DNA from: Thermoplasmata archaeon
GTDB lineage: Archaea > Thermoplasmatota > Thermoplasmata > Lutacidiplasmatales > UBA184
DNA length: 64,000 nucleotides
Direction: 5' to 3'
NCBI GenBank assembly: GCA_035945215.1
Contig: DASZAJ010000002.1
Coordinates: forward strand, 133,057 to 197,056
In this document: positions 876-55,957 of the stretch, in pieces
How positions within the stretch are numbered: the stretch's first letter is position 1
Layout of the letters: every line of letters starts with the position of its first letter
Translations under genes and position numbers: made by a program
The notes under the pieces: generated by a model
Database searches by the model: none
What the model saw: only the letters and a program-made list of their open reading frames with translations
Told to the model about the DNA's origin: nothing

Positions 876-1423
876 GTTGGCCCCTTCAGGGCGTACTCAG
901 TTCGAGCATGAAATGTGTTCTCCCGATTGGAGGCGGCTTAAAGCTGCTGCAAATCATGGCATCTTTAGCGATTTCAAGAACGATGTAGCAGCGCCGCCCG
1001 GATGGTCCGAGAAAAACGATTCGAATAGTTGCCACGAAGTAAGTTTCAAGCTCTAGGGCACGTCAGATTTCTTGGACAAGGCTCTCGAGCCAGCTGAGGG
1101 CCCGCCCGTTTTCAAAGTGCCCTCAGCATAGGTCCAAGAACGGTTGGACCTCAGGAAGAGCTTCATGCCGCCAACGGAAGAGCTCCACCCACCTTCACTT
1201 GCGGGCAAGGGGACCTGGTCGCCTCCCATCGATCGACCCTTTCGGGAACCCCAGGGGCCCGACCGCAAAGGACGGAACCCGCCGACCCTTTCCTGATCGG
1301 ACTCGCTCGTGGGGTCGAGGAGATGGAGCCGAAGCCGTGGACCCCGAAGTTCGAGGACCCGGACGAGCAGACGGCGGGGGAGGTGGCGGAGAGCTTGGAA
1401 GGTGGCGTCCTTATTCATCGCTG

Positions 1424-2494
1424 ATGCGGGCTCCTCGAAGCGTAGGATTATCGTGTGCGCGCGGCCCTGCCCCCCATATGGGAGCAGCCCGGATTCTGCA
1501 CCGGCTAGGATTGGCGCGTTGCTGTGTGGGAATGGGCGTTCCCAATCTTGCGACGCCAACGTACTTCCCTGCGGTTTCATCGACGTGCTCTCTTGGTCCT
1601 CCAGAGGAGTTCATCCGTCTCCTGACCGAGGCGGCTTATCCCAGGGCCCTCGTGTCCGCCTACGACTGCAAGCATCGAATCGACGGCGGCCTCTCCAAGG
1701 CGGCGGCGCTCCTTGCAGGCCTCAAGGGCGCCGGATGCACCGTCCTCCTAGACAGCGGCCTCTTCGAATGCCAAGTCCTCGGAATCGAGGACTGGTCCGC
1801 CGATGACCATGCGGAGGTCGCCAGGGCACTCCATCCCGATCTCCTTCTATCGTACGATGGTCCCCTCCCGGCGTCCAGCGCGCGACGGGAGCCCTCAGAT
1901 GGGAAGGGACAGGGCGATCCAGGTTCGAGCCGCCTACTGCGAATTATCCACGGAAGGGACAGGCAAGCGATTGTCAGTGGGGCGCGCCAGGCGGCGAGCG
2001 AAGGCGCCTCTGTCGGCATTGCGATTCCAGACCGCGAGTGCGGCCCCACCCTGCTCGAACGCACGCGGACAGTCTGTGCGATTCGGCGCGCACTAGATCA
2101 CTCTGACGAACTTCTGATGCTCCACATTCTCGGCTGCGGAAACCCGGTGGTCATGTCAGTCTACGCTCTCGCCGGTGCCGACTCATTCGATAGCTTGGAC
2201 TGGGTCCAGGGAGCAGTTGATATCCGGACCCTGACAGTAACCGACCCTGTTCTCCTCCCCAGCACGCGGTGCAAGTGCCGGATCTGCGTCGACCTTCCCG
2301 GACCTGACCGACAGCGAGCTGTTCTGCACAACCTTCTGTTCTACCAGGACTTTGGAACGCGACTTCGGGGAATGATCCGCGACCGGACAGTCTCCGACTT
2401 CCTCCAGGAGCTTGTGGGAAAGGAACGAACCGCCCAGCTCGTGGAAACGGCCAACGAAGGAGACGCCAGGGAGCGAGGCGCCCGTGCAGGATAA
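1424..2494 (+). CDS. tRNA-guanine transglycosylase (TGT) family protein, catalytic domain only, no PUA domain; DpdA/Cap10-like. The start is uncertain: ATG at 1424 or 1478, and the track start at 1199 adds a low-complexity extension that is probably not coding.
   Basis: TGT signature motifs are present in order. 'ATPTYFPAVSS' matches TPxFMPVGT. 'LLSYDGPL' follows. 'LHILGCGNPVVM' matches the LMGVGxP motif. 'GADSFDS' matches the GxDMFDC motif. A Zn site 'CKCRIC...H' matches CxCxxC...H. Confidence 0.8.
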   Translation: MRAPRSVGLSCARGPAPHMGAARILHRLGLARCCVGMGVPNLATPTYFPAVSSTCSLGPPEEFIRLLTEAAYPRALVSAYDCKHRIDGGLSKAAALLAGLKGAGCTVLLDSGLFECQVLGIEDWSADDHAEVARALHPDLLLSYDGPLPASSARREPSDGKGQGDPGSSRLLRIIHGRDRQAIVSGARQAASEGASVGIAIPDRECGPTLLERTRTVCAIRRALDHSDELLMLHILGCGNPVVMSVYALAGADSFDSLDWVQGAVDIRTLTVTDPVLLPSTRCKCRICVDLPGPDRQRAVLHNLLFYQDFGTRLRGMIRDRTVSDFLQELVGKERTAQLVETANEGDARERGARAG

Positions 2495-3179
2495 CGCGCG
2501 GTACTCATGCTCTACCCGCACCTTCCTGCCCCTGGGGGTTCTTTCGCGTTACCGTAGAGCTGCCCATACTGTCGAGAGGGCAAGTCGGCACGGGAAGCTA
2601 TCCGAGAGGCGCGCATGGCGGGAATTGTGTTTCTGCTTGATATCGCCGATGACCCGCTTCGAGGCGGTAGGCGCTTGCCTCGAACGACTCTCGAGGCGCG
2701 GAATCCTCGACCGCCTCTCATCGACTCCCGCAAGCGTGGGAGTCGATGAAATTCGCGCAGTCCTGTCGATTGGGCCAGGCTCGTGCCGATTCGCGAACCA
2801 AAAGGCTCTTCGACTTTCGGGGGCAGGTCTTTTCTTTTACGACGGTTCCCGTCGCGGAGGGATCCTTGGTTTCTTGGATCGATACTCGAACCCGAAAGAG
2901 GCCCGAGCAGCCTTGGCCATGAGCGTTCCCGGTCTTGGCATCAAGGAGGCGTCACACTTCCTCCGGAACGTTGGCAGGGGAAGCGATATCGCGGTGCTCG
3001 ACGTTCACCTACGCCGGTTCCTGGCCGAAAGTGGCATGGTTGGACCGAGAATCGCCTTTTCCGGGTCCCCTTCCAGCTACGCTTCGATTGAGGGTGCGTA
3101 CACCTCGCTCGCGTTCCATTCGGGGCTGGACACCGCAGCGCTTGACCTCGCGATCTGGGAATACATGAGAGAGCGGTGA
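2484..3179 (+). CDS. Ogg2-family 8-oxoguanine DNA glycosylase / N-glycosylase-DNA lyase (HhH-GPD superfamily); Cap11/OGG-like in this context
   Basis: 'WRELCFCLISPM' matches the archaeal Ogg2 'ELCFCILTAN' block. 'GLGIKEASHFLRNVGRGSDIAVLDVHLRRFL' matches the Ogg2 HhH-GPD block 'GIGYKEASHFLRNVG..DVAIIDRHIL'. There is no ATG, GTG or TTG in frame after the TGT stop, so the start is inferred at GTG 2484 with an 11-nt overlap with the upstream gene. The track's ATG at 2412 is the alternative. Confidence 0.85.
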   Translation: MQDNARYSCSTRTFLPLGVLSRYRRAAHTVERASRHGKLSERRAWRELCFCLISPMTRFEAVGACLERLSRRGILDRLSSTPASVGVDEIRAVLSIGPGSCRFANQKALRLSGAGLFFYDGSRRGGILGFLDRYSNPKEARAALAMSVPGLGIKEASHFLRNVGRGSDIAVLDVHLRRFLAESGMVGPRIAFSGSPSSYASIEGAYTSLAFHSGLDTAALDLAIWEYMRER

Positions 3180-3182
3180 AAC

Positions 3183-3833
3183 TTGAAGACCGTTGTCCTC
3201 GCTTCAGGTGGTCTCGACTCTTCGATCTTGCTGTTTCTGCTCAAGCGAGAGCATGTTGACGTCCTACCGGTGCACGTCGACTACGGGCAGCTGGCGGAGA
3301 AACAGGAGTGGTCCTCACTGCGACGATTCTGCCGTAAGGCAAAGCTCCCAAACCCGATAAGGGTGAACGCGACGGGGTTGAGGAAGGTCCCCAGCGGTCT
3401 CACTCGAAAGGGCAACCGATGGGCAAGAGACCCCTTTTTCCCGGCACGGAATATGGTCTTAGTGTCGATAGGGGGTGCTATTGGCCATCCCGTTGGCGCT
3501 CGTGCGGTCGCTCTCGGCCTTGTCGCAAACGCACTCTACCCGGACCAGACAAAGGACTTTGTCCGCCGTGCTCAGGGCGCCCTTTCTGAGAGCCTTGGAG
3601 GCAAGATGCTGGTCCTCGCCCCCTTGCTGACCTTGTCTAAGTCGGAGGTTGCTGCTCTCGGCCTGAGCATGGGGGCGCCTATTGGACTTACGTATTCGTG
3701 CCAGCGAGGGGAGCATCGACCATGCAACCACTGTTCGAGTTGCGCTGACCGAGCGCGCGCTGTCAGCGAGGCCACACGCCTTCGTGGAGGATCAAGCCGA
3801 GTTCGGCACGCGACCAGGAGGATGAAGGCATAG
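3183..3833 (+). CDS. queC: 7-cyano-7-deazaguanine (preQ0) synthase QueC; Cap9-like in this context
   Basis: The N-terminal PP-loop 'KTVVLASGGLDSSILLFLL' matches the QueC SGGxDS motif. The C-terminal Zn cluster is 'CQRGEHRPCNHCSSCADRARA'. The TTG start lies 4 nt after the Ogg2 stop, and the stop overlaps the next gene's start. Confidence 0.85.
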   Translation: MKTVVLASGGLDSSILLFLLKREHVDVLPVHVDYGQLAEKQEWSSLRRFCRKAKLPNPIRVNATGLRKVPSGLTRKGNRWARDPFFPARNMVLVSIGGAIGHPVGARAVALGLVANALYPDQTKDFVRRAQGALSESLGGKMLVLAPLLTLSKSEVAALGLSMGAPIGLTYSCQRGEHRPCNHCSSCADRARAVSEATRLRGGSSRVRHATRRMKA

Positions 3834-4336
3834 TGGGCGGAAGTGGAGGAGGCGGGGGATACGGCGGGGGAGGACCGCTAGTTCCATCGGAAAGCCTGAG
3901 GGTCTTCAAGACTGGCTTAGAAGAGACCCGGGCAACTGAGGGCGGCCCCCCAAGAACTCGAAATGTCTTCATCAGTTTCCACGTGGCAGACGAAGCGCAA
4001 GTCAATCTGCTTCGATCTCAGGCAAGAGACTCTGATTTCGGAATGGAGTTTCGAGACTACTCGGTTAATGAGCCCTTTGACGAAGCTTGGAAGGCAAATT
4101 GTCGAGAGCGAATTAGCTTGACCTCGATGACCATCTGTATGATAGGACCTGAGACTGCGACGCGAGAAGCGGTCATCTGGGAGTTGGAAGAGAGCTTCCG
4201 ACAAGGCAAGAAGGTCATTGGCGTCAGAATCTTCCGCGACCGAAACGACCCGATCCCAGCACCGCTTTCGGAACATGGCGCCCCAATCTTGTACTGGAAT
4301 CGGGATGAGATTCGAAGGCACTTGGACTCGGGATAA
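3833..4336 (+). CDS. TIR-like domain protein (DUF1863 / ThsB-like) with a Gly-rich N-terminal tail
   Basis: 'RNVFISFHVADEAQVNLLRSQ...SMTICMIGPETATREAVIWELEESFRQGKKVIGVRI' resembles TIR-like DUF1863 proteins (the xVFISYshxD opening plus the conserved downstream block). The GTG start overlaps the queC stop. The first 15 residues are 'MGGSGGGGGYGGGGP'. The start codon is uncertain. Confidence 0.6.
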   Translation: MGGSGGGGGYGGGGPLVPSESLRVFKTGLEETRATEGGPPRTRNVFISFHVADEAQVNLLRSQARDSDFGMEFRDYSVNEPFDEAWKANCRERISLTSMTICMIGPETATREAVIWELEESFRQGKKVIGVRIFRDRNDPIPAPLSEHGAPILYWNRDEIRRHLDSG

Positions 4337-4339
4337 GCA

Positions 4340-4870
4340 ATGACGGCAAGCGGACCCTCAGACGGACGAGACCAGCTCTTCCACGTCACACCGGCTGAGT
4401 ACGGGTCCGATTACCGGGAGCACCTGCTGAAACAGTACCGTCTTGCGGTCGAACGGGCGGACGCGGTGAGCGACCGACGGGCCACCATGAACGAGTACTA
4501 CCTCGTGCTTACCTCGGTAATCCTCTCGGTAGCCGGCATCGGGGTCGGAGGGGCATTTGTTGGTTCGCCCGTCATTCCTCCGAGGCTCGCTCCTTGGGTG
4601 AGCCTAGTAGGGGTGATTGTTACCTCATCGTGGCTTGCCGCGATCTACGCCTCCAACCAGTTGAATCGGGCGAAGTTCCACGTGATAAACCGGCTGGAGG
4701 AGCGACTACCGGCAGCAGTATTCTCGGTCGAATGGAACTTCCGCACATCAGGTTCCGAAATCGCGCAGGCAGGCGGGGGGCGCATATACACTTCGAGTAC
4801 GGTTGTCGAGTCAATCGTGCCGGCAGCCCTTCTGCTCTTGTTCGTCGGCCTCACTCTATACCTCATTTGA
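4340..4870 (+). CDS. SLATT-like 2TM effector protein (predicted membrane protein)
   Basis: An N-terminal helix 'EYGSDYREHLLKQYRLAVERADAVSDRRATMNEYYLVLTSVIL' is followed by two closely spaced hydrophobic helices and a third C-terminal helix. This matches the SLATT architecture, which is known to pair with TIR/SMODS. It starts 3 nt after the TIR-like gene. Confidence 0.55.
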   Translation: MTASGPSDGRDQLFHVTPAEYGSDYREHLLKQYRLAVERADAVSDRRATMNEYYLVLTSVILSVAGIGVGGAFVGSPVIPPRLAPWVSLVGVIVTSSWLAAIYASNQLNRAKFHVINRLEERLPAAVFSVEWNFRTSGSEIAQAGGGRIYTSSTVVESIVPAALLLLFVGLTLYLI

Positions 4871-4893
4871 ATGGGGGCGCACGGGAGCCGCGG

Positions 4894-5562
4894 ATGCTTC
4901 TGGTCCGGGAAATGCCAGACTCACGACAGCCGGGGTCGAAAGGAATCGAGAATCGAGCGGAAGTCCTGACGACCTTCATGATCGAGCTTCGGGAGCAGTG
5001 CGCCCAAGCCCTTACAGCATTTGCTGAACTACGTGGCCTAATCGGGCAGGACCCACCGCTCGATGACGAGGGCCGGCGCTTCTGGAACCGGAGAGTATGG
5101 CTCCGCATCCACGGAGTACTTGCCGCGGGTACCGCCGTTTCGAACATCCTGTGGCCGAACCCGGCAAATTCGCAAGGGGGGAAGGTAGCCAATCGGGCAC
5201 TGGGCCGGGCGACAGCGCTCAGAGTGGCACTTTCAATAGAGGGGTCGCCTCCCCGTGCTGCGATACGGGCGAGGAACGCGTTTGCACACGTTGACGAACG
5301 ACTCGACGAGTGGCTCGAAGGCTCTCCCCGTGAGCTGCCCATGGGGTGGGTGATCTCGAGCCTTGACGAATTTGATGAACCCTCCTGGGGACGAAACGCC
5401 TTTCGCTACTACCACGCGAATCGGAGAGAACTGCGAATCGGCCGCGAAAGCTGTTCACTGACCGAGCTGGTTTCGTGGATCGAGTCGATAGACGACCACC
5501 TACCCCATGAAGCCACGATGGTTTTCAAGAGATACGACGGCGGCGGCCCCCCGGAACTCTGA
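4894..5562 (+). CDS. Hypothetical protein with Rx4H motif (possible HEPN-like RNase domain)
   Basis: ATG at 4894 sits directly after the SLATT stop; the track ORF 4594..5562 carries an out-of-frame-overlap extension. 'RARNAFAHVDERLDEW' contains R-x4-H. I recognise no other family. Confidence 0.4.
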   Translation: MLLVREMPDSRQPGSKGIENRAEVLTTFMIELREQCAQALTAFAELRGLIGQDPPLDDEGRRFWNRRVWLRIHGVLAAGTAVSNILWPNPANSQGGKVANRALGRATALRVALSIEGSPPRAAIRARNAFAHVDERLDEWLEGSPRELPMGWVISSLDEFDEPSWGRNAFRYYHANRRELRIGRESCSLTELVSWIESIDDHLPHEATMVFKRYDGGGPPEL

Positions 5563-6042
5563 AACGGGCCCTTTCGTGGGTTCGGAGAGGGGAGAGGGGT
5601 CACGAGGTCGGTGCCCCTTGGGATCCCAACCTTCGCGGGCAAGGAGTGGGGCACCCCCTCTCGGACGGGCGAGGTTCGGAGAAGGGGATGCCCCCCTCCA
5701 AATCGTGCGGCGGGAAGAATTTGAACAGAAGTGAGTCCAAGAAGGTGTAGACCTACTCTCCGATCGGATCCAATGAGCAGGGTTCGATAACCTTCCTAGG
5801 CCAGTGACTCCGCGGACGGGCCAATCCAACAGTACACCGAAGTTAGCCCGCCGGATGGCGGAATCGAACCTGACAACGGACTCGATCCTCGAGCTACTTG
5901 AGAACCGGGAGTCTGACGACCCGATTCGTCTTGAAGACCCCGGCTCTAGGCCGGCACTTGTTCTCTACTTCCACGCCCATTGGACGATCGGGGATTCGGC
6001 TCAGAGGATCCGGCTCCCGGAGCCCGGTTCATCCCCAGGTCA

Positions 6043-6924: not shown

Positions 6925-7263
6925 TCAGTGGCTGGCCTCCCCCTTCGGGAACTTCGCTCGCTTGAGCGTTGAGACAACGCGAGGCAGGTCATCTCGGATG
7001 AATTGCCAAAGGTCCTCCGGATCCACAGCCTCGTACTCATGAATCACAATTGTCCGGAACGCCCGAACCAGTTGCCACAGCGAACGGTAGCGAGACTTGA
7101 ACCCCGGACTAAGCTTGTCTGCCGATTCCGCGAAGAATATCGACCTGAGGTGAACTCGCTCAACGGCAATCGGGTCGGACCGGAACTTGCCTTGCTGGGC
7201 AAGATCGGCGAGTTCTCGGGCCAGCCCAATCATCCGTTCGGTCAATTCACGGTCTCGATTCAA
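6925..7263 (-). CDS. HepT-like (DUF86, HEPN) toxin of a MntA/HepT module
   Basis: 'RTIVIHEYEAVDPEDLWQFIRDDLP' is the DUF86 Rx4HxY motif. It overlaps the upstream NTase gene by 4 nt. Confidence 0.7.
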   Translation of the reverse strand: MNRDRELTERMIGLARELADLAQQGKFRSDPIAVERVHLRSIFFAESADKLSPGFKSRYRSLWQLVRAFRTIVIHEYEAVDPEDLWQFIRDDLPRVVSTLKRAKFPKGEASH

Positions 7264-7688
7264 AGAGGCACCGCCTCTCTAAGCACGGCAGGGGCGACCG
7301 ACCAGCGCAGTCGGCTGGGGGAGACCACATCGACGTCTCTATTCAAGAGTACCGAGAGCGCAACCTGCAGGTGCAGCCGGTTTGAAGGGCCAATCCAATC
7401 CACAAGAAGATCGACGTCGGATTTGGCGTGGGCCTCTCGCCTGCGGACCGATCCGAAAACCCGGACGTTCCGGGCGCCATAACGTTGCGCGATCCGAAGT
7501 ATCTCCCCCCGGTGCGGCGCCAAAACTTCGTCGATTCCGTGCCCGTGACCGAGCTCGAGGGGTCGATCCCTCGGCACTGAATAGAGTCTTGACTTGCAGC
7601 GCGGGCACATTCCCGGCCGACGTCGGCGCGCTTGCCATGTGTAGATGCATCGGTAACAATGAATCAGGCGTACTCGACGCTTCGTCAT
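7260..7688 (-). CDS. MntA-like minimal nucleotidyltransferase with an N-terminal zinc ribbon
   Basis: 'VRVFGSVRRREAHAKSDVDLLVD' is the GSxxRG...DxD minimal-NTase motif. It is preceded by 'HCYRCIYTW...CPRCKS' (CxxC...CxxC). Confidence 0.7.
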   Translation of the reverse strand: MTKRRVRLIHCYRCIYTWQARRRRPGMCPRCKSRLYSVPRDRPLELGHGHGIDEVLAPHRGEILRIAQRYGARNVRVFGSVRRREAHAKSDVDLLVDWIGPSNRLHLQVALSVLLNRDVDVVSPSRLRWSVAPAVLREAVPL

Positions 7689-16332: not shown

Positions 16333-16590
16333 CTCGACTGCGGGCCAGGGGTCCTCGTGCCGAACGCTGGGGTCTCCAACGGGGCCGCGCGCTGCCCGCG
16401 CGCGTCACCGGGCCGGCGGAACCTTATAGAGCCCGTCGGTCCCTGTGCGGGAGCCTTGCTGGGCCCGTCGTTCCGCCTGAACCGGACCTCATCACTACCT
16501 GCGCGCTTCTCTCGCGGGAACCCGATCAACACTGAGAGACCACCAGCGATTCCATCGGGCGGGCCACACCGACGTCGCCCTTTCGGAGGG

Positions 16591-19500
16591 ATGGGGGTCC
16601 TTGCCGTTGCGGCGGTCCTTCTCCTCATGATGGCGGGGGTACCCACATCGGCAACTACCCCCGCTTCCGGAGGGAGCCCGCCGGGACCTTCCCTGTCGAA
16701 GGCGATCACCGCACCTCCGATCCACTCGGTCTCACAGATCGTCAGAACCCCCACCTCGGGCCCGGGGTACCAGTCGCTCTGCCTGTTGGGCATGCTGCGG
16801 GGGTGTTCGCCCGACGGCGGCGCCGCCCCGGTCGTTCCGACGCCTCTCGCCTCGCGACCCTCGTCCTGGGCGAACATCACGCCCATGAGCCCAGGGCCGA
16901 ACCCTTCTGAGCGTTTGCTTACCTCGATGACCTACTACCCGACTGGTCACGACGTGCTACTGTTCGGAGGGTACGGATGCACCCTTGTCTGCAACGACAC
17001 ATGGTCGTTCGCCCATGGGAACTGGACCGACCTAGTTCCGAGCTCGACCTGCACTAGCACCACATGCCCCTCGCCTCGGGCCGACGCGATGATGGCCTAC
17101 TATGCCCCGCTCGGAGGCGTTCTCCTATTCGGCGGTGGCCTCTCGTTCTTCGGCGTGACCCACGCGTTCGGCGACACGTGGCTCTTCCAGGGCGGAGCTT
17201 GGCGCAACATCAGCGGCACAGTCGGCACAGCGCCATCCCCCCGATTCGACGGGGCGATGACCTGGGATTCCCTCGACAACTACGTCCTGTTGTTCGGGGG
17301 CTCGCTCGCGACCGGAGCGACGCTCGGGGACACTTGGATCTTCAACGGAACATGGCACAACATCTCGGCTTCGGTCGGGACGTCGCCCCCGTCGCCGCGA
17401 GCCGGGATGGCCATCGCGAATTCTCCGTCGGGGTACATCCTCATGTACGGAGGGGAAGCGTGGAACGGGACTGCCTCGGTCATCCTCAACGACTTTCCGA
17501 CGTCCGGTTGCTTCCCCTTGCCCCATGTCGCATACTGGTTCTACGGTGGCGTCTGGAGCCCGATCAAGTACCCTGCGTGTCCCAACCTGCCTTTCCGACC
17601 GGCTGTCACGACCCCCGGAGATCCCCCACCTTGTGGCCGCACGGGGGCCGCTCTCGGATGGAGCCCGAAGAACGCACACTTCGTCCTCTACGGCGGCTAC
17701 GGAACGACGTTCACCACGACCTGCAGCGGCCCGATCCGAGAGCTCAACGACACGTGGACGTACACGGCGCCGCCGGGTACTTCGATCAACGGCTTTGCCT
17801 GGGCTCCCTCCGGGGATTCCGGCGACCCGTCGAACCGATCCACCATGGGTTACGCGGCCGACCTGACGGACGGTTACTTCGTCCTCTTCGGTGGGACGGA
17901 CGGAACGAATGCGTTCAACTCGACGTGGCGCTACTACGCCCTGGTCCATGCCCGCCTGACCGGACCCTCCGACATCGAGACCAATGCGAGCAAATTGGGC
18001 TTCACCGTCCCGTTCACCGTCTTCGGAGAGGGCGGGACCGGCACGCTTGAGTACGCCTTCTCGGTCCCATGGAAGCTGAACTCGAACCTCCTCACGGATA
18101 GCGGCAGCACGGGTTGCGCCGAGCTCTCGAACCAGACCGGGCTTGTTTACGGGCCCCTGCCGGGAATCGGGACCGCGCAGATCACCTGCACGCCGACCCC
18201 GCAGAGCTACAACCAGTACCGAGTGACGGTCCATGTTTGGGACGTCAACAACGTTTCCGACTCCGCCACCTCGGACTGGTCGTTCAGAGTGCATCCTCCG
18301 GAGACGATCGCGATCCACTCCCAATTCTCGGGGTACTTCTATTCCGGGGTCACCTTTCCGAACAAGTTCGCGGTATACACGACCACGGCGGGGGCGAACG
18401 CCGTCTCCGTCCGGGCCTCCCTCGGTGGCGTCGGCGTTCCATTCGTCCAACGCTCGGGCGCCGGACAATGGTGGGACGCCTCGGTAGACATCGGCACGAT
18501 CCCCTACGGGCCGCAGATCCTCCACGTCATCGCCACGTTCGCCAGCAATTGGACGCTCGACGCGAACTACACGGTGAACGTGATCGAGACTCCCGATTGG
18601 CTCCTCAGCGTGATCAAGTTCCCGCAGGTCACCCAGACGATCGCGACCAAGGGGGCGGGGCCGTTCAACGAGAGCTACTCGATCACGGAAGCGTTCCAGT
18701 GGTCGCTCGACAAGGCGCTCGGCTTCAACATCGAACTGCCGTTCGTGAAAGGGAATGTCTCCCTGATCCCGGCCATCACGGTCTCCCTCAAGGTGAACTC
18801 CGCCGGGAACCTGACCCTCGGGGGCAGCCTCTCGCTCAAGCCTCCCTCGATCGACCTCGGACCCGCCTCGGTCGGGATCACCCTCACCTTCGCCCTGAAA
18901 GCCACGTTCAAGATCGCCTCGGTCGGCGGCGAGATCCAAGGGATCACCTGGCAGACCGCGGTCGCGTCGTTCACTCTCGCGGGGAAGTTCAGCGCGTCGG
19001 TCCCGATCTACGGATTCAACATCCTCGGGGTCAAGGTCGGATTCACCCTCGAGGTCGAGGTCGATCCTTCGATCACGCTCGGGCTCGTCCTCGCCCCGAC
19101 GACGCCGGGCTTCGACGAGTTCATTTCCGGCATCCAGGTGAAGATCCAACAGTTCATCGGAAGCTTCACCCTCCCCCTCTCGCTCGCGGTCAACTTCGGG
19201 ATCGGGATCGCCTCGATCGGGATCGGCGGCCAGATATCGATCGCGGTCAATTTCGCGACGACGACGGGGCTCTACATCCCCGCCGGATGGATCAACGGGT
19301 CGATCTTCGTCGAGGCGAGCTTCCTCTGGTGGTCCGACCAGTGGGATCTCGCGAGCGGCACGATCTACTCCTGGACCAGCCCGCCCCCGCCGGTCGCCGT
19401 GGGCCTCGGTCCACCGCCACCGCCCCTGATCGCCCTCCCGGGCGCGGCGTACAACAACGGCACCAACACCACCTGGTCGATCCAGTCCCGCTACTACCTC

Positions 19501-20814
19501 TCTCCCTCCTACGACCGGAATGTGTGGTCGGCCGCGGGCAGCGCCGGCCCCGCGATCTCGGACATCTATCCGCACACGGAAGTGAGCACGGCCGCGGCGG
19601 CCGACGGAAGTTTCCTATTCTACACGAACGACAACGCCAACCTCTCGGCGTCGCAGGGCCTCGGCGTCTCCGCCCTTCGTCTCGATCCCACGACGAACGC
19701 CCTCTCCCGGCTTCCCGCGCCGAACGATCCGAACTTCATTCTCAGCTCCCCCCGTGCGACGACGCTTCCGGACGGCAGCATCTACCTCCTCTGGGATGCA
19801 CTTCCGATCGGCGAGACCGGCGTCGCGAGCCCGGCCTCCCTCACCACGCTCGAGCTTCATGGCGCGCGATTCGACCCGGTGAGCCACACGTGGGGTCCGA
19901 CCCGAACGTGGACCTCTTGGGGCCTCGCCCAATCGTATCGGGTGGATGCGACCGGGGGGGAGGACACCGTGGCCGCGCTGGTGAGTTCGGGGTACCTCCT
20001 CGGATCCACGTCCCCGGAGCATCTCGTCGTCTTCAACCTCGACACGGGCGCCGAGGTCGGGAACTCAAGCGTCCACGGACTTTCGACCGTGGTCTCCGTC
20101 CGCGGCGCCCTCGGGGAGGCGCTCGTCCAGGACGTCGGGGGGAACTACTCCACGGTCACCCTCGGCACCGGAACCTCGGCTCCGATCGGCTTCGCATCCC
20201 CGATCGGGGGCAGCCTCGTCTCGGCCGAGCTGGCGTCCGGCTCTCCGTCCACCGCCGTGCTTCTCTACCGGGCCTCGAACCGCTCGGTGCTCGCCCTCTA
20301 CGATCTCTCGACCGGTCAGACCGTAGCGAACCTCCCGCTCGGCGAGGATGCCTTCGAGGCGGAGGCGGTGGCGAGCGGCTCGAACTACGATGTGTTCGTC
20401 CGGACTCCTGCGGGGATTCAGGGCTGGCTCGAAGCTGGAGGGGCCTTCACGAACCTCACGGACTCACCCGGCAGCGGGGTCGTGAGTTACAGCCTCGTCC
20501 AGGACGGGAGCGGCCTCGTGATCGACTCCCTGGTGGCGTCGGGCCCTTCGTCGACTCCGACCCTGACGTTGTACTTCTCGGAGGTCGGGGCCAGTCTGCC
20601 ACCGATCACCCGGACTCCGTCGCCCCCCGTCGCGGGCTCGCACTCCACCTCCCCCAACTATCCCCTCTATCTCGGGATCGTCGCGGCGGCCGACGTCCTC
20701 CTCCTCGCGGTCGTGGCCGTGTGGGCGAACCGCCGTTCCCGCCCCCCCGCCTCGCCTCCGAGCCCACCGACCGCACCCGTGACGCCTCCCCCGCCTGGAT
20801 CGGAGCCCGGATGA
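16591..20814 (+). CDS. Giant cell-surface protein: signal peptide, Kelch-type beta-propeller repeats, a Gly/Ile-rich beta-hairpin-like central domain, and a C-terminal TM anchor
   Basis: ATG 16591 gives 'MGVLAVAAVLLLMMAGVPTSA'. Repeated 'VLLFGGY...NDTW' Kelch motifs span about 16900-17950. The C-terminus 'LYLGIVAAADVLLLAVVAVWANRRSRPP' plus a Pro-rich tail. The long antisense ORF 17125..19575 is Arg/Asp-rich noise. Confidence 0.75.
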   Translation: MGVLAVAAVLLLMMAGVPTSATTPASGGSPPGPSLSKAITAPPIHSVSQIVRTPTSGPGYQSLCLLGMLRGCSPDGGAAPVVPTPLASRPSSWANITPMSPGPNPSERLLTSMTYYPTGHDVLLFGGYGCTLVCNDTWSFAHGNWTDLVPSSTCTSTTCPSPRADAMMAYYAPLGGVLLFGGGLSFFGVTHAFGDTWLFQGGAWRNISGTVGTAPSPRFDGAMTWDSLDNYVLLFGGSLATGATLGDTWIFNGTWHNISASVGTSPPSPRAGMAIANSPSGYILMYGGEAWNGTASVILNDFPTSGCFPLPHVAYWFYGGVWSPIKYPACPNLPFRPAVTTPGDPPPCGRTGAALGWSPKNAHFVLYGGYGTTFTTTCSGPIRELNDTWTYTAPPGTSINGFAWAPSGDSGDPSNRSTMGYAADLTDGYFVLFGGTDGTNAFNSTWRYYALVHARLTGPSDIETNASKLGFTVPFTVFGEGGTGTLEYAFSVPWKLNSNLLTDSGSTGCAELSNQTGLVYGPLPGIGTAQITCTPTPQSYNQYRVTVHVWDVNNVSDSATSDWSFRVHPPETIAIHSQFSGYFYSGVTFPNKFAVYTTTAGANAVSVRASLGGVGVPFVQRSGAGQWWDASVDIGTIPYGPQILHVIATFASNWTLDANYTVNVIETPDWLLSVIKFPQVTQTIATKGAGPFNESYSITEAFQWSLDKALGFNIELPFVKGNVSLIPAITVSLKVNSAGNLTLGGSLSLKPPSIDLGPASVGITLTFALKATFKIASVGGEIQGITWQTAVASFTLAGKFSASVPIYGFNILGVKVGFTLEVEVDPSITLGLVLAPTTPGFDEFISGIQVKIQQFIGSFTLPLSLAVNFGIGIASIGIGGQISIAVNFATTTGLYIPAGWINGSIFVEASFLWWSDQWDLASGTIYSWTSPPPPVAVGLGPPPPPLIALPGAAYNNGTNTTWSIQSRYYLSPSYDRNVWSAAGSAGPAISDIYPHTEVSTAAAADGSFLFYTNDNANLSASQGLGVSALRLDPTTNALSRLPAPNDPNFILSSPRATTLPDGSIYLLWDALPIGETGVASPASLTTLELHGARFDPVSHTWGPTRTWTSWGLAQSYRVDATGGEDTVAALVSSGYLLGSTSPEHLVVFNLDTGAEVGNSSVHGLSTVVSVRGALGEALVQDVGGNYSTVTLGTGTSAPIGFASPIGGSLVSAELASGSPSTAVLLYRASNRSVLALYDLSTGQTVANLPLGEDAFEAEAVASGSNYDVFVRTPAGIQGWLEAGGAFTNLTDSPGSGVVSYSLVQDGSGLVIDSLVASGPSSTPTLTLYFSEVGASLPPITRTPSPPVAGSHSTSPNYPLYLGIVAAADVLLLAVVAVWANRRSRPPASPPSPPTAPVTPPPPGSEPG

Positions 20815-22931
20815 GGGTGCTCTTCGGAAGGATGGGGGGCAGCCGGTCTCGTCGCTCCAGGACCCTGGGGCCGGTTCTCGTCGTCGCCGTGTGCCTGATC
20901 TTGGTCCTTCCGTTGGGCGGTTCCGAAGGACGCTCCCTCGTGTTCCCCCCCGCGGTTCGAGGGCCAACTCTCTCTGCCTTCGGGGCGATCCATACCCAAC
21001 TATCCTCCCCCCCGAAAGCGACGGAGACGCACCGTGGAATCGGCCCTGGGAATGCCATTCCCCTGGAATGGGTCAATGTTACCCAGACCGCGCCTGGTTC
21101 CGCACCACCCAGTGCGTCCGCGGGTTCGATGGCCTACGACCCCTTGGATCACGAGACGGTCTATTTCGGCGGCTGCCTGAGGTTGGTCTGCGCGACCAAC
21201 CAGACCTGGGTCTTCTCGGGGGGCACGTGGCTCAACCTCACCGATCCCCACGATGCACCGCCCGCACGGTACGGGGCCACCATGGACTACGATGGGAACA
21301 TGGGCGGCCTCCTGCTGTTCGGGGGGTACGGCTCCAGCTCGTACCTCGATGACACCTGGTTCTTTCACGCGGGGGTCTGGACCAACCTCTCCCCTACCCT
21401 CGCGACGAATCCTCCCGCGCGAGTTGACGCCAGCATGGCGTTCGTTCCCGATCCCGAGGAGAACGGGTCGGTCCTCTTCGGCGGGTACGAACCCGGACTC
21501 GGCGGCTGGGCCAACGACACCTGGATCTGGCACGGCGCTGCGGGTTGGGTCCTTCTCCAGCCGAGCGGTCCGGTCCCGCCGCCCTCCGGACACACCCAGA
21601 TGGCCTACGATCCCGTCGAAGGCGCCCTCGTCCTTTTCGGCTGCGGCTACGGGGGCTGCGCGGTGCCCAATCAGACGTGGGAGCTCTACTCCGGGCAATG
21701 GTGGCATGTCGTCCCCCCAAGTCCCGTCCCTCCGTACCGTTCCGATGCGTCGATGACCTACGACGCCGGCCTCTCGGCGATCGTCCTGTTCGGAGGGCTG
21801 GGCGCTTCGGGCTACCTCAGCGATACCTGGAAGTTCGCCGGCGGCGTTTGGGCGAAGCTTTCGGTCGGGATCGCGCCGCCCGCTCGCTCCTCCGCCATGA
21901 TGGCCTCCGATTCGGGGGGATCTCCCCCGGTGCTCTTCGGCGGCGCTAACGGTCGCCTCTCCAGTCTCAACGATACGTGGGTGCTCGAGGCCCCCCCTAC
22001 CGTCGGGATCTCGGCGACCCCGACGATGGCCGAGACCTCCACCCCCGTGACCCTCAACGCGAGCGCGTCGGGCGGAACCTACCCGTATCGGGTGGTCTTT
22101 GCGTTCGGGGATGGTGCGAGCGCCGTGGCCGCGGTCTCGGCGATTCTCCCCACGGGGTTCGTGTTCACGGCCGCCCACAGCTACCTGAAAGCCGGCGCCT
22201 ACTCGCCCTCGGTGAACCTGACCGATGCCTTGGGGGCCCTCGTGACGAGCCGGGTCGTCCCTGCGGTCCTGGTCACCCGGGGACCGACCGTAGGTCCCCC
22301 CTCCGAACCCGGATCGGGCGATGTCGGACTCGCGCTCTCCTTCCAAGGGGGGCCGGTCACGAACGGCACCCCGCCCTTCCGATTCGACTGGTCGTTCGGG
22401 GACGGAGGCACGGCTACGGGACAGAATGCGAGTCACACGTTCACGGCGCCGGGAATCTTCAGCGGGAACCTGACCGTGACCGACGCGCTGGGCGGAAGTT
22501 CGGTGGCGAGCTTCACCGAGATCATCCACCCCATCCCGGCCGCCACCATCGCGGTCACGCCCCACGCGCCGGTCACGGGAACTGTGACGACGTTCTTCGA
22601 GAACGTCACGGGAGGGAGTGCGCCGTTCCGATACACCTGGAGGTTCGGCGACGGCGGGACGAGCACGGTCCCCTCTCCCCAGCACGTCTTCACCACCGCG
22701 GGCAGCTTCACGGTCGAGCTCTGGGTGAACGACTCGCTCGGCGCCTCCGCCCACCAGAGCCTCATCGTGCCGTTGGCGCCGGGCCCGTCGACGCCTCCGG
22801 CCACGAACTCCAGTGGGGGCTCCACGGGCGCTCCCGGGTGGTTCTGGCCCGGTATCGGCGCGCTCGTGGTCGTAGGTGCGCTCGGGGGTTTCCTCTTGCT
22901 TCGCCGGGGTCGATCGACGAAGCGGGTTTGA
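20811..22931 (+). CDS. Cell-surface protein with Kelch repeats and PKD domains, C-terminal TM anchor
   Basis: ATG 20811 overlaps the upstream stop (ATGA) and gives the signal 'MRVLFGRMGGSRSRRSRTLGPVLVVAVCLILVLPLGG'. Kelch motifs 'LLLFGGYGSSSYLDDTW', 'VLFGGYEPG..NDTW'. PKD-like 'FDWSFGDGGTATGQNASHTFTAPGIFSGNLTVTDALG' x3. The C-terminus is 'WPGIGALVVVGALGGFLLLRRG'. Track ORF 18114..22931 is this gene plus an out-of-frame read-through of the upstream gene. Confidence 0.75.
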   Translation: MRVLFGRMGGSRSRRSRTLGPVLVVAVCLILVLPLGGSEGRSLVFPPAVRGPTLSAFGAIHTQLSSPPKATETHRGIGPGNAIPLEWVNVTQTAPGSAPPSASAGSMAYDPLDHETVYFGGCLRLVCATNQTWVFSGGTWLNLTDPHDAPPARYGATMDYDGNMGGLLLFGGYGSSSYLDDTWFFHAGVWTNLSPTLATNPPARVDASMAFVPDPEENGSVLFGGYEPGLGGWANDTWIWHGAAGWVLLQPSGPVPPPSGHTQMAYDPVEGALVLFGCGYGGCAVPNQTWELYSGQWWHVVPPSPVPPYRSDASMTYDAGLSAIVLFGGLGASGYLSDTWKFAGGVWAKLSVGIAPPARSSAMMASDSGGSPPVLFGGANGRLSSLNDTWVLEAPPTVGISATPTMAETSTPVTLNASASGGTYPYRVVFAFGDGASAVAAVSAILPTGFVFTAAHSYLKAGAYSPSVNLTDALGALVTSRVVPAVLVTRGPTVGPPSEPGSGDVGLALSFQGGPVTNGTPPFRFDWSFGDGGTATGQNASHTFTAPGIFSGNLTVTDALGGSSVASFTEIIHPIPAATIAVTPHAPVTGTVTTFFENVTGGSAPFRYTWRFGDGGTSTVPSPQHVFTTAGSFTVELWVNDSLGASAHQSLIVPLAPGPSTPPATNSSGGSTGAPGWFWPGIGALVVVGALGGFLLLRRGRSTKRV

Positions 22932-36073: not shown

Positions 36074-36445
36074 CCCGCGGGGCCCATCGGATTCCCAATC
36101 CTAGCCGAGACGCGGCGTCTGCGGCCTCTAGGGACCGGGCGGGCGTTCCAAGCGATTCTGCCGACCTTGTGTCCGCGCTGACCCAGTCAGCTCGGCGATA
36201 CTGAAAGTTCGAACCGGAGCCGCCGGGGCCCGACCCCAATCGCAACTCTCGCCGAGGGGAACCCGCCGGGAACGCCGTCCATTCAATCCGTCGGTCGACC
36301 TTGGCGCGGTCCACCGCCCCGCTTCGTTTCAGATCGGCCGGCATGATCAGCCCCCGGAGGCTCTCCATCCGCCATGGCCCCTATGTCGCACTCCCAAGGA
36401 TGCGTTCCGATAGGTTCTTGTGCGAGGACCGAGACACCCCCTCTC

Positions 36446-55698: not shown

Positions 55699-55912
55699 GA
55701 TGACTATTCAGCTTTCCCAACCTTCGGGGGGGGGGCGATATCAAGGGGGCCGCCCGGACCGTGAACGTTTCTCGAGAGTATCTCGAGGGACCCGGTCGTG
55801 GATGACCGCCCGCCGGCGCCGAGATCGTGACACTCTATCAGCCGTCACCTGACTTCGAGCCGAGGGCCTTCGGAACGGATTGAAAGGGGATTTTTCACGA
55901 TTTCCGGCATCG

Positions 55913-55921
55913 TCATATAAT
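55913..55921 (+). promoter_or_regulatory. TATA-box-like 'TCATATAAT' in the divergent promoter region between the two giant surface-protein genes
   Basis: It is 37 nt upstream of ATG 55958, in the AT-richer 180-bp intergenic region 55699-55957. Confidence 0.35.
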
Positions 55922-55957
55922 CCGCCGCGCTGGACCGTCGACTTCTGCGATCCTTAC

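Follow-up and report, generated by a model that had tools for sequence, protein, structure and literature searches.

A predicted Thoeris-like TIR/8xMP cassette with homologs of the type IV CBASS Cap9, Cap10 and Cap11 proteins in a Thermoplasmata archaeon

Results and discussion

Genes at the locus

The window analyzed here is a stretch of 64,000 nt from contig DASZAJ010000002.1 of a Thermoplasmata archaeon, and all coordinates refer to it. Between positions 1478 and 5562 its plus strand contains six tightly packed ORFs (Table 1), as reported in a first-pass annotation made from the sequence alone; we confirmed the junctions given there, i.e. 2484/2494 for ORF1/ORF2 (an 11-nt overlap between the GTG start of ORF2 and the end of ORF1), 3179/3183 for ORF2/ORF3, 3833/3833 for ORF3/ORF4 (a 1-nt overlap), 4336/4340 for ORF4/ORF5 and 4870/4894 for ORF5/ORF6. 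The start of ORF1 at 1478 is more likely than that at 1424, because it is the one chosen by the gene caller and is covered by homology to L016, the nearest relative of this locus; the start at 1532 is also possible. The expected domains hold for five of the six ORFs: HMM searches against Pfam and PADLOC agreed with the initial labels TGT-like, Ogg, QueC and TIR (DUF1863), and ORF6 carries the Rx4H motif, while the label SLATT for ORF5 had to be replaced by 8xMP.

Table 1. Predicted genes of the cassette and the adjoining ORF6 (window coordinates).
ORF	Predicted product	Length (aa)	Coordinates	Strand	Remarks
ORF1	Cap10-like TGT-family protein	338	1478..2494	+	alternative starts 1424, 1532
ORF2	Cap11-like OGG (Ogg2-type HhH glycosylase)	231	2484..3179	+	Pfam Ogg-HhH, 9e-24
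ORF3	Cap9-like QueC-family ATP-dependent ligase	216	3183..3833	+	Pfam QueC, 7e-35
ORF4	ThsB-type TIR protein	167	3833..4336	+	GTG start; Pfam ThsB_TIR, 2e-14
ORF5	8xMP-family membrane protein	176	4340..4870	+	Pfam PF24838 (8xMP), 4e-27
ORF6	Rx4H (HEPN-like) protein	222	4894..5562	+

ORF1 is matched by the PADLOC TGT model PDLC00913 (1.6e-17) but by the Pfam TGT profile only with 1.2e-3. Its best relative of known structure is Cap10 (9ntn_A, 6.9e-10), with ArcTGT (1iq8) reported only at 0.051. The residues D92/S93, D127, H216 and D238 correspond to D73/S74, D122, H226 and D248 of Cap10 and are invariant in 16 relatives; the zinc motif C265-x-C267-x2-C270...H284 is retained. ORF2 finds its best solved relatives among archaeal Ogg structures (3fhf and 3knt, ~1e-13), its HhH lysine K154 and aspartate D173 are likewise invariant in 16 relatives, and we propose that it may act as a negative regulator. 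ORF3 matches the PADLOC QueC model PDLC00911 (6e-33), and is closer to the solved chain of Cap9 (9nto_B, 1.9e-16) than to that of QueC (3bl5, 7.6e-11); its invariant positions comprise SGGLDS (the SxGxDS motif), R89-N90, K153 and four zinc cysteines. The Cap10 residues listed above and the Cap9 SxGxDS motif were found to be essential by Wassarman et al. 2025 (10.1101/2025.04.06.647259), and all of them are invariant in the clade to which ORF1 and ORF3 belong.

ORF4 is also recognized by the PADLOC ThsB model (2e-16), ThsB_TIR being the present name of DUF1863. W116-E117 is invariant; in the alignment, its glutamate matches that of 'YE' in BcThsB (6lhy), which we take to be the catalytic residue E85. 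The TIR core is preceded by an N-terminal handle of 42 aa (MGGSGGGGGYGGGG...SLRVFKTGLEE), whose start position is ATG in relatives. It begins with MGGSGG and agrees with M(G/S)G(G/S)GG, the conjugation motif that the CD-NTases of type IV CBASS carry as acceptor of 7-amido-7-deazaguanine: in these systems QueC-, TGT- and OGG-like genes put the 7-deazaguanine on the first glycine of the signalling enzyme (Wassarman et al. 2025). ORF4 both takes the place that the CD-NTase has in type IV CBASS operons, as initially suggested, and carries the corresponding motif. Among 33 non-redundant Cap-linked TIRs the handle has the consensus M-G-G-G-S/T at a fixed position 34-45 residues upstream of the TIR core. 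In the GTDB loci, the Gly-rich extension is present in all 29 TIRs with an adjoining TGT-like gene and absent from all eight TIRs without such a neighbor. A clear M/V/L-[GSA]-G start is seen in 24 of the 29, and the start is ambiguous in those of L018, L025, L039, L044 and L045. The CD-NTases of sister operons share the handle (MGGGSSYSGPS..DEAERIFK).

ORF5 had been labeled as SLATT, an identity we rejected for lack of significant HMM support: in ORF5 and its relatives a SLATT_5 match appeared only once, with E = 0.55, while PF24838 matched all 26 relatives tested (ORF5 plus 25 relatives by another count). ORF5 has three hydrophobic segments (53-76, 83-105 and 151-176), and conserved polar residues lie in the predicted cytoplasmic segments of the family, which has no characterized members. 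The AF2 model is of low confidence (pLDDT 60) and found no match in a structure search. The position of ORF5, together with a weak match to the PADLOC CBASS '4TM effector' model (1.7e-4), leads us to propose that it may be a signal-activated effector.

Searches of Pfam, PADLOC and NCBIfam returned nothing for ORF6. A word-indexed search returned only 6 close homologs, whereas an exhaustive profile search returned 1987 cluster representatives; in a sample of 58 sequences R127 and H132 of the R127-x4-H132 motif are each conserved in at least 90%.

Conservation and genomic neighborhood

The conserved core of the locus, as predicted from sequence, comprises the Cap10-like TGT, the Cap11-like OGG, the Cap9-like QueC, the ThsB-type TIR and 8xMP. 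We found this order in 17 GTDB species, the majority of them archaeal; among the metagenome loci, 46 of the 55 that were informative have it as well. Such a recurrence is far beyond chance, and the order is fixed across Thermoplasmata, Bathyarchaeia, Nitrososphaeria and Brocadia. The anticipated association of TIR with QueC/TGT/OGG genes is thus borne out, with 8xMP rather than SLATT as the membrane partner; of the 37 GTDB loci, 30 have 8xMP next to the TIR, as do 37 of the 46 metagenome loci, and the adjacency persists where Cap genes are missing. In comparison with other Thermoplasmata, sequence homology stops at the cassette borders and the flanks are unrelated, which indicates that the cassette travels as a unit.

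The earlier suggestion that QueC/TGT/OGG form a portable tagging module agrees with the neighborhoods of relatives, in which the same Cap10-like clade adjoins TIR, CD-NTase, metallo-beta-lactamase-fold (MBL) or HD proteins, the latter two being further partners of the Cap9/10/11-type module. A three-gene variant also occurs, in which the single tagging-type gene is a diverged TGT-like one. The proposed defence-island context found less support: the only defence-type neighbor of the cassette is a HepT/MNT pair (6925-7688), the other surroundings in the window being glycosyltransferases and large surface proteins and not a clear defence island.

Comparison with known systems

Type IV CBASS (CdnD, Cap9, Cap10 and optionally Cap11; PDB 9ntn, 9nto), for which the tagging chemistry was described by Wassarman et al. 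2025, shares with the present locus a homologous ancillary trio with catalytic residues kept, a partner enzyme in which an N-terminal M-G-G-S-G-G acceptor motif is followed by a helix, and a downstream effector, membrane or other. However, the signalling enzyme here is a TIR without a SMODS domain rather than a CD-NTase, and Cap11 is present in 55 of 61 loci as compared to about one third of CBASS operons. Moreover, the Cap10 clade of ORF1 keeps the TGT zinc site lost in the Rhizobiales Cap10, and ORF3 has Y-P-D-Q where published Cap9s have YxDC, which suggests that the substrate or the target may differ from those of CBASS.

Type VII Thoeris (ThsB plus the SLATT effector ThsH, with a cADPR signal; Yirmiya et al.) likewise consists of a small ThsB TIR and a small multi-pass membrane protein for which oligomerization upon signal binding is assumed, but it is without Cap genes; 8xMP shows no significant SLATT match, and ORF4 is only 25% identical to a type VII TIR, as opposed to 52% to its closest typed relative, a type IV Thoeris TIR that has a caspase-like protein as its effector. 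In QatABCD (the QueC-like QatC with QatB) a QueC-family enzyme likewise targets a partner's N-terminal glycine; however, TGT-like, OGG-like and TIR genes are missing there, and the active site of QatC is remodelled, whereas ORF3 keeps Cap9/QueC-type motifs.

Alternative explanations

ORF1-ORF3 belong to families of tRNA modification and base-excision repair, and the zinc motif of ORF1 and the catalytic Lys and Asp of ORF2 are retained, so one could envisage a housekeeping archaeosine cluster (ArcTGT and QueC) with an 8-oxoguanine repair gene, located by chance beside an independent TIR-membrane pair. We consider this highly improbable and reject it as already largely refuted; the first-pass annotation had also held it to be the less likely reading. 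With the NCBIfam equivalog cut-offs used as a test for housekeeping enzymes, all three proteins fail by a wide margin (ORF1 versus TgtA: 29.7 bits, cut-off 350; ORF3 versus QueC: 100.9 bits, cut-off 150.3; ORF2 versus OGG: 96.6 bits, cut-off 183). Cap10 and Cap9, and not ArcTGT and QueC, are the best solved relatives of ORF1 and ORF3, and the 338 residues of ORF1 (582 in ArcTGT) include no PUA region or C-terminal domains, as noticed at the outset for PUA. The fixed five-gene order, the restriction of the glycine handle to TIRs with an adjoining TGT-like gene, and the movement of the cassette as a unit between unrelated flanks also argue against it. The trio is Cap10/Cap11/Cap9-like and not of the housekeeping type.

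The roles of the remaining genes could be assigned differently. NADase effectors are common among bacterial TIRs, Cap10 of type IV CBASS keeps its partner inactive, and HMM searches found no recognizable ligand-binding domain in 8xMP; hence, ORF4 could itself be an NAD+-depleting effector, held by Cap10 and freed on infection, with 8xMP serving another role, e.g. as sensor or anchor. This is rather unlikely, as ORF4 is of the minimal ThsB type (PF08937), a signal-making class, its closest typed relative works with a separate effector, two-gene TIR-8xMP pairs without Cap genes occur, as in classical Thoeris, and 8xMP combines polar conservation in its predicted cytoplasmic segments with the weak match to a CBASS effector model. 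It is quite unlikely, too, that all six genes form one system, as initially assumed, with ORF6 acting either as a further effector, of the RNase type, or as a regulator. ORF6 lies on the same strand only 23 nt past ORF5, is kept with the cassette in L016 (conserved block 1190-5605), and combines its conserved motif with a structural model of a four-helix bundle. However, the window and L016 are the only loci where it accompanies the cassette; it is missing from all other Cap-TIR-8xMP loci examined (16 GTDB, 46 metagenome), and its family is large (~2000 cluster representatives) and stand-alone. The close homologs sit in unrelated defence-type loci, beside PIN-RHH, AAA ATPases, MmeI-like R-M and Fic; genes for Cap proteins, TIR or 8xMP are absent there. 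ORF6 is, judging from these neighborhoods, a lineage-acquired gene riding with the cassette and not a core component.

Predicted mechanism

We consider it probable that the locus encodes a five-gene antiviral signalling cassette, in which a Thoeris-like pair of a ThsB-type TIR and 8xMP is placed under a type IV CBASS ancillary module. The best reading is a Thoeris-like system whose TIR may be primed or restrained through N-terminal deazaguanylation, according to a scheme inferred at every step from homology. The TIR would lose its methionine, exposing Gly2. The Cap9-like ORF3 is proposed to adenylate 7-carboxy-7-deazaguanine from the host archaeosine pathway and to ligate it to the Gly2 amine, which would give the TIR an N-terminal 7-amido-7-deazaguanine (NDG) tag. 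The tagged N-terminus would be held in the nucleobase pocket of the Cap10-like ORF1, yielding a primed, inactive complex; with its intact catalytic Asp/His pair, ORF1 may also move the tag via N9 to a target upon infection. The Cap11-like glycosylase would restrain or reverse the Cap10-like step. The freed or activated TIR would use Glu117 to turn NAD+ into an ADP-ribose-derived signal, and binding of this signal to the cytoplasmic face of 8xMP would cause it to oligomerize and damage the membrane, aborting the infection.

The cassette architecture is not new, in contrast to what the first-pass annotation supposed. Thoeris operons with cap9, cap10 and cap11 were noted by Yirmiya et al. in December 2025 (bioRxiv 10.64898/2025.12.03.692087, Fig. 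6G, S10B). A single paragraph deals with them and reports no experiments; a Pseudomonadales example was modelled with AlphaFold3, and in these models the TIR contacts Cap9 and Cap10 in a manner resembling the CD-NTase. The available parts of the tables of that preprint have no entry for 8xMP, PF24838 or QueC in the cap-Thoeris context. These operons, as presented there, have in common with the present locus a TIR and an effector operonically tied to QueC-, TGT- and OGG-like genes, but the present locus is archaeal. The cassette is a real and widely conserved predicted defence system, for which our analysis also documents the glycine handle, the way in which this handle co-occurs with a TGT-like gene, and a distribution mainly among archaea.

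Layout and borders of the cassette

Six consecutive ORFs lie on the + strand within positions 1199-5562 of the window. The tight junctions claimed in the first-pass annotation were borne out on the sequence: ORF2 starts at a GTG (2484) ahead of the ORF1 stop codon (2494), and the later junctions are 3179/3183, 3833/3833 (a 1-base overlap), 4336/4340 and 4870/4894. For a Logan contig identical to the window, the gene caller gives the same six genes, with the start of ORF1 at 1478. Homology with other Thermoplasmata loci ends at the borders of the cassette (1190-5605 for L016, the nearest relative of the window, and 1478-4870 for L017-L019), so the whole cassette moves together. Viral contigs yielded a single distant TIR match, hence no sign that it is virus-borne. 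Promoter and terminator scans gave counts no higher than those for shuffled sequence, with consensus patterns that are bacterial and ill-suited to archaea, and a scan of the window for tRNA genes found none. Altogether, this is a real, conserved, mobile, predicted defence cassette; the core idea of the first-pass annotation, a deazaguanine module joined to TIR signalling, stands, while its SLATT label, its six-gene extent and its claim of novelty, the last overtaken by the literature, do not.

Features of the window and of related loci (L numbers, from the GTDB and metagenome scans), with profile matches where reported
Locus	Coordinates	Strand	Feature	Profile matches
Window	1478-2494	+	ORF1, Cap10-like TGT	TGT, PADLOC 1.6e-17; Pfam just 1.2e-3
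Window	2484-3179	+	ORF2, Cap11-like OGG	Ogg-HhH 9e-24
Window	3183-3833	+	ORF3, Cap9-like QueC	QueC, Pfam 7e-35; PADLOC 6e-33
Window	3833-4336	+	ORF4, ThsB-type TIR	ThsB_TIR, Pfam PF08937 2e-14; PADLOC ThsB 2e-16
Window	4340-4870	+	ORF5, 8xMP membrane protein	8xMP (PF24838) 4e-27; weak PADLOC match to CBASS '4TM effector' 1.7e-4
Window	4894-5562	+	ORF6, Rx4H protein	
Window	6925-7263	-	HepT-like (HEPN) toxin	
Window	7260-7688	-	MNT nucleotidyltransferase antitoxin	PADLOC PDC-S09 4e-26
Window	16357-22931, 36374-39379, 50989-60655		Very large ORFs	Kelch, PKD, NHL, right-handed beta-helix repeats
L005	2939-3355		QueF-like gene	PF14489 1e-21 (family)
L007	2909-3337		QueF-like gene	
L008	2906-3280		QueF-like gene	
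L020	4135-4515		QueF-like gene	
L021	68-466		QueF-like gene	
L056	737-1947		Extra TIR and 8xMP	
L058	555-1737		Extra TIR and 8xMP	
L068	4661-5101		Second or third TIR	
L125	8633-9046		Second or third TIR	
L039	7344-9915		Second or third TIR	
L114	3879-4859		MBL-fold protein	Lactamase_B, down to 2e-15 (with L130)
L130	4900-5880		MBL-fold protein	Lactamase_B, down to 2e-15 (with L114)
L118	3477-4457		MBL-fold protein	
L133	3054-3755		MBL-fold protein	
L128	3609-4598		HD/HD-CE protein	Weak Pfam scores
L128	4611-5792		Alpha-alpha toroid protein	Squalene-hopene-cyclase/prenyltransferase-like
L044	5909-7879		Three-gene form, isolate Methanosarcina hadiensis TD41E1-1 chromosome	

The Cap10/Cap11/Cap9-like trio

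Judged by sequence, ORF1-ORF3 are Cap10-, Cap11- and Cap9-like and not housekeeping genes. Among all solved structures, the best match of ORF1 is Cap10 (9ntn_A, 6.9e-10; ArcTGT 1iq8 scores merely 0.051) and that of ORF3 is Cap9 (9nto_B, 1.9e-16; QueC 3bl5 follows at 7.6e-11). A housekeeping ArcTGT/QueC/Ogg identity was rejected, since the scores fall far under the NCBIfam equivalog cut-offs (TgtA: ORF1 29.7 bits vs 350; QueC: ORF3 100.9 bits vs 150.3; N-glycosylase/DNA lyase: ORF2 96.6 bits vs 183) and ORF1 is too short, with 338 aa against the 582 aa of 1iq8 and without the C-terminal half of ArcTGT that contains the PUA domain.

In one type IV CBASS from Rhizobiales, Gly2 of the CD-NTase receives 7-amido-7-deazaguanine (NDG) from the ligase Cap9, and Cap10 binds the modified N-terminus via D73, S74, D122 and K154 beside a catalytic D248/H226 pair, and all type IV CD-NTases start with M(G/S)G(G/S)GG (Wassarman et al., 10.1101/2025.04.06.647259). 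Residues D73/S74, D122, H226 and D248 of Cap10 correspond to D92/S93, D127, H216 and D238 of ORF1, which are invariant in 16 relatives; the equivalent of K154 is uncertain. Invariant in ORF3 are SGGLDS (the SxGxDS pyrophosphate motif), R89-N90, K153 and four zinc cysteines; in ORF2, K154 and D173 correspond to the HhH Lys and Asp of archaeal Ogg. The structure of Rhizobiales Cap10 was reported without a zinc site, whereas the TIR-linked Cap10 clade exhibits an invariant TGT zinc motif CxCxxC...H (C265, C267, C270 and H284 in ORF1; alignment A6). Likewise, the TIR-linked Cap9 clade reads [FY]-P-D-Q (Y-P-D-Q in ORF3; alignment A9) where QueC and the published Cap9s have YPDC/YxDC, and the His of the published Cap9 H(x)4Y motif is replaced, in ORF3 by Val.

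In Nitrososphaerales, Bathyarchaeia, Brocadia and other loci (including 16 of 61 metagenome loci), Cap10 is immediately preceded by a small QueF-like gene; there is none in the window or in any Thermoplasmata locus found, and it is not among the named ancillary genes of type IV CBASS in the literature searched.

The TIR protein and its glycine handle

Read from its GTG, the N-terminus of ORF4 is MGGSGGGGGYGGGG; between it and the TIR core lies a segment in which F25 and E31 are nearly invariant. Close relatives have an ATG at the position of this GTG. The starting residues MGGSGG fit the M(G/S)G(G/S)GG NDG-acceptor motif of type IV CBASS, here on a TIR protein instead of a CD-NTase. Among 33 non-redundant TIRs encoded after Cap9 in metagenome loci, the start consensus is M-G(29)-G(30)-G(27)-S/T-S/G, situated 34-45 residues ahead of the core; the choice of start codons in this count favoured the motif, but its spacing is fixed and ATG starts are frequent, which argues for a real motif.

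Across the 37 loci of the GTDB scan, the Gly-rich N-terminal extension (the handle) is present in 29/29 TIRs with a TGT-like gene upstream, with a clear M/V/L-[GSA]-G start in 24 and an ambiguous one in the other five (L018, L025, L039, L044 and L045), while all eight TIRs without such a neighbor start a few residues ahead of the first beta strand. In these loci the acceptor handle is restricted to TIRs adjoining a TGT-like gene. CD-NTases encoded behind the same Cap10 clade start with MGGGSSYSGPS..DEAERIFK, which is the handle as seen on TIRs.

The core is of the ThsB type: in the alignment its invariant W116-E117 falls on the 'YE' glutamate of BcThsB (6lhy), taken here to be the catalytic E85, and E117 is invariant in 33 sequences. 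ORF4 is 25% identical to a type VII Thoeris TIR. Among the TIRs listed in the accessible part of Yirmiya et al. (10.64898/2025.12.03.692087), the closest typed one is 52% identical and labelled 'Caspase - Type IV' in Table S1, which would be a weak hint as to the signal.

The 8xMP membrane protein as a putative effector

ORF5 and 25/25 of its relatives match the Pfam 8xMP family. The first-pass annotation had called this protein SLATT, a label we abandoned: among the 26 family members SLATT_5 was reported for one (E = 0.55) and S_4TM also once, with a non-significant E-value, and ORF5 itself has no profile matches to SLATT, DUF2270, Macro, SIR2 or caspase effector types, only to PF24838. The protein opens with ~50 soluble residues, among which Q32, Y33, R47 and N51 are invariant, and has hydrophobic segments at 53-76, 83-105 and 151-176, the second and third being joined by a conserved loop (K112, E120, P124, E131). 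The AF2 model is poor (pLDDT 60) and Foldseek found nothing below E = 1.9 for it in the PDB; a profile search of PDB sequences with 8xMP gave zero matches, and a literature search for '8xMP' and 'octameric membrane protein' returned nothing relevant and no paper on any member.

The 8xMP gene adjoins the TIR gene in 30/37 GTDB loci and 37/46 metagenome TIR loci. We infer that ORF5 is a putative effector from where its gene lies, from its persistence beside TIR even where the Cap genes are absent, and from the weak similarity to the CBASS 4TM effector. L057, L125, L131 and L132 contain Cap10-Cap11-Cap9-TIR without 8xMP despite >700 nt of downstream sequence, and their Cap-linked TIRs may use other effectors.

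The mechanism that we propose as the most likely one combines two published mechanisms, with every step deduced by homology. ORF3 would place NDG on Gly2 of the TIR protein; ORF1 would bind the tag and restrain or prime the TIR, and may transfer the tag onward, while ORF2 would work against the ORF1 step. The activated TIR would then produce an NAD+-derived signal, to which 8xMP would respond at the membrane.

ORF6 and the genomic surroundings

The system had been proposed to comprise six genes; ORF6, however, accompanies the cassette in the window and in L016 alone. It has just six close homologs, of which the three looked up adjoin PIN-RHH, AAA ATPase, TIR_2/BglII, MmeI-like R-M or Fic genes, i.e. 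defence-like contexts, and have no Cap, ThsB-type TIR or 8xMP genes nearby. Searches of ORF6 against Pfam, PADLOC, NCBIfam and PDB profiles were all negative, and a Pfam scan of 57 remote homologs revealed no family in common. The ORF6 family, for which there is no Pfam model, is large, with 1987 members representing clusters at 50% (E <= 0.001), and has a nearly invariant R-x4-H motif; in some members of ~368 aa the domain is C-terminal.

The sole other defence-type element near the cassette is the HepT/MNT pair, whose genes overlap by 4 nt. Farther on, the window contains very large repeat ORFs, probably surface proteins; two of them, 16357-20814 and 18114-22931, overlap in different frames, probably owing to a frameshift or because one ORF is spurious. 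A glycosyltransferase cluster lies on the contig (L001) upstream of the window. Together with the large surface-type ORFs, this places the cassette in a region of cell-surface genes, not in a classic defence island.

Distribution

A word-indexed protein search identified 298 TIR relatives of ~160 aa (E <= 0.001); the three looked up (from a Nitrososphaerales member, another archaeon and Ca. Brocadia) are encoded together with QueF-like, TGT, OGG, QueC and 8xMP genes. The scan of GTDB, with one genome per species, yielded 37 loci, almost all archaeal, with hosts including Thermoplasmata, Bathyarchaeia, Nitrososphaerales, Nitrosopumilus, Nitrosotenuis, Hadarchaeota, Woesearchaeota, Micrarchaeota and several methanogens. 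In the HMM census of these loci, 17 exhibit Cap10-Cap11-Cap9-TIR(-8xMP), 12 have a diverged TGT-like gene directly upstream of TIR, eight are without a TGT-like gene, and one locus is truncated. A metagenome scan seeded with the alignment of TIR-linked Cap10-like proteins gave 80 loci, with Cap11 in 55/61; 55 had enough sequence past Cap9, and TIR was next in 46 of these. TIR is the commonest partner of the trio in this Cap10-seeded, mostly archaeal sample.

A second or third TIR was seen beside the Cap operon in L056, L058, L068, L125 and L039; in L056 and L058, QueF-Cap10-Cap11-Cap9-TIR is preceded by an extra TIR together with 8xMP.

Other partners and the three-gene form

A non-TIR partner follows Cap10-Cap11-Cap9 in 9 of the 55 informative metagenome loci. 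L070, L086 and L113 have SMODS where TIR sits in the window, along with a Cap17-like effector, and are true type IV CBASS. Four loci encode an MBL-fold protein directly after the trio, assigned by Pfam in L114 and L130 and by sequence similarity in L118 and L133. With the N-terminus MGYGKQLFP.FPKEPEE(A/S)E, it represents a third class of enzyme that bears the handle, and no description of this partner was found in the literature searched. Encoded next in these loci are a membrane protein of 256-269 aa and another MBL protein. The HD/HD-CE protein after the trio in L128, starting MGTPGISQP..VEEIKAKFKSALEEA and followed by the gene of an alpha-alpha toroid protein, would be a fourth partner class, to judge from this single locus with weak Pfam scores. 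The ninth locus, L073, has a partner of unassigned class.

Twelve archaeal genomes possess a three-gene form (L025, L035-L037, L039-L045) in which a diverged TGT-like gene precedes a TIR with the handle, and 8xMP comes next in 10/12 loci. The protein ahead of TIR (270-330 aa) reveals kinship with the Cap10 clade at the profile level alone (hhalign 85.9%, E = 5e-6), the TIR starts with MGGG.RG.R..Y, and no QueC or OGG gene occurs within 7 kb.

We tentatively speculate, holding the idea to be somewhat short of probable, that the Cap9/Cap10/Cap11 module is a general portable regulator, which reads a transferable handle of ~35 residues (M-G-G-G plus an amphipathic helix) and partners with at least four unrelated enzymes (TIR, CD-NTase, MBL and HD). 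If so, the three-gene form would point to the TGT-like protein as the handle's core partner, and the tag could come from housekeeping QueC or be dispensable.

Relationship to known systems and significance

The cassette shares with type IV CBASS the Cap9-like and Cap10-like genes and the NDG-acceptor start, but it is without a CD-NTase, and neither Pfam nor PADLOC gave a SMODS/nucleotidyltransferase match in the six ORFs. With Thoeris it shares a ThsB-type TIR with the conserved glutamate and an adjoining conserved gene. The closest likeness is to Thoeris with Cap9/10/11, reported by Yirmiya et al. (10.64898/2025.12.03.692087, Fig. 6G): in the window, too, genes for a TIR and a putative effector share an operon with cap9-, cap10- and cap11-like genes, in conserved synteny. 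In AF3 models of a Pseudomonadales example given there, ipTM was 0.79 for ThsB-Cap10 and 0.62 for ThsB-Cap9. The architecture, which the first-pass annotation had regarded as novel, is thus known, although uncharacterized, with no experiments on such operons found in the literature searched, and the window locus adds a new member, from archaea. A QueC-family survey found that 67% of the Cap9-cluster members adjoin a CD-NTase, and it made no mention of TIR. The present analysis contributes evidence for the handle at the sequence level and its co-occurrence with TGT-like genes; it further adds the mainly archaeal spread, assigns the putative effector to 8xMP and excludes ORF6.

Deazaguanylation of protein N-termini was found in 2025 in one bacterial CBASS operon (10.1101/2025.04.06.647259). 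In the archaeal-dominated sample analyzed here, the same machinery mainly accompanies TIR and its catalytic residues are intact, and the handle also occurs on CD-NTase, MBL-fold and HD proteins; these four contexts are independent systems in which a common target of the Cap10 transfer could be sought. The window locus overturns nothing by itself; it is a good archaeal entry point to the mechanism, and the diversity of partners is of interest. The findings also provide Thermoplasmata, Bathyarchaeia, ammonia-oxidising archaea and methanogens with a candidate immune system of the nucleotide-signalling kind; among the methanogens, the cultured Methanosarcina hadiensis carries the three-gene form.
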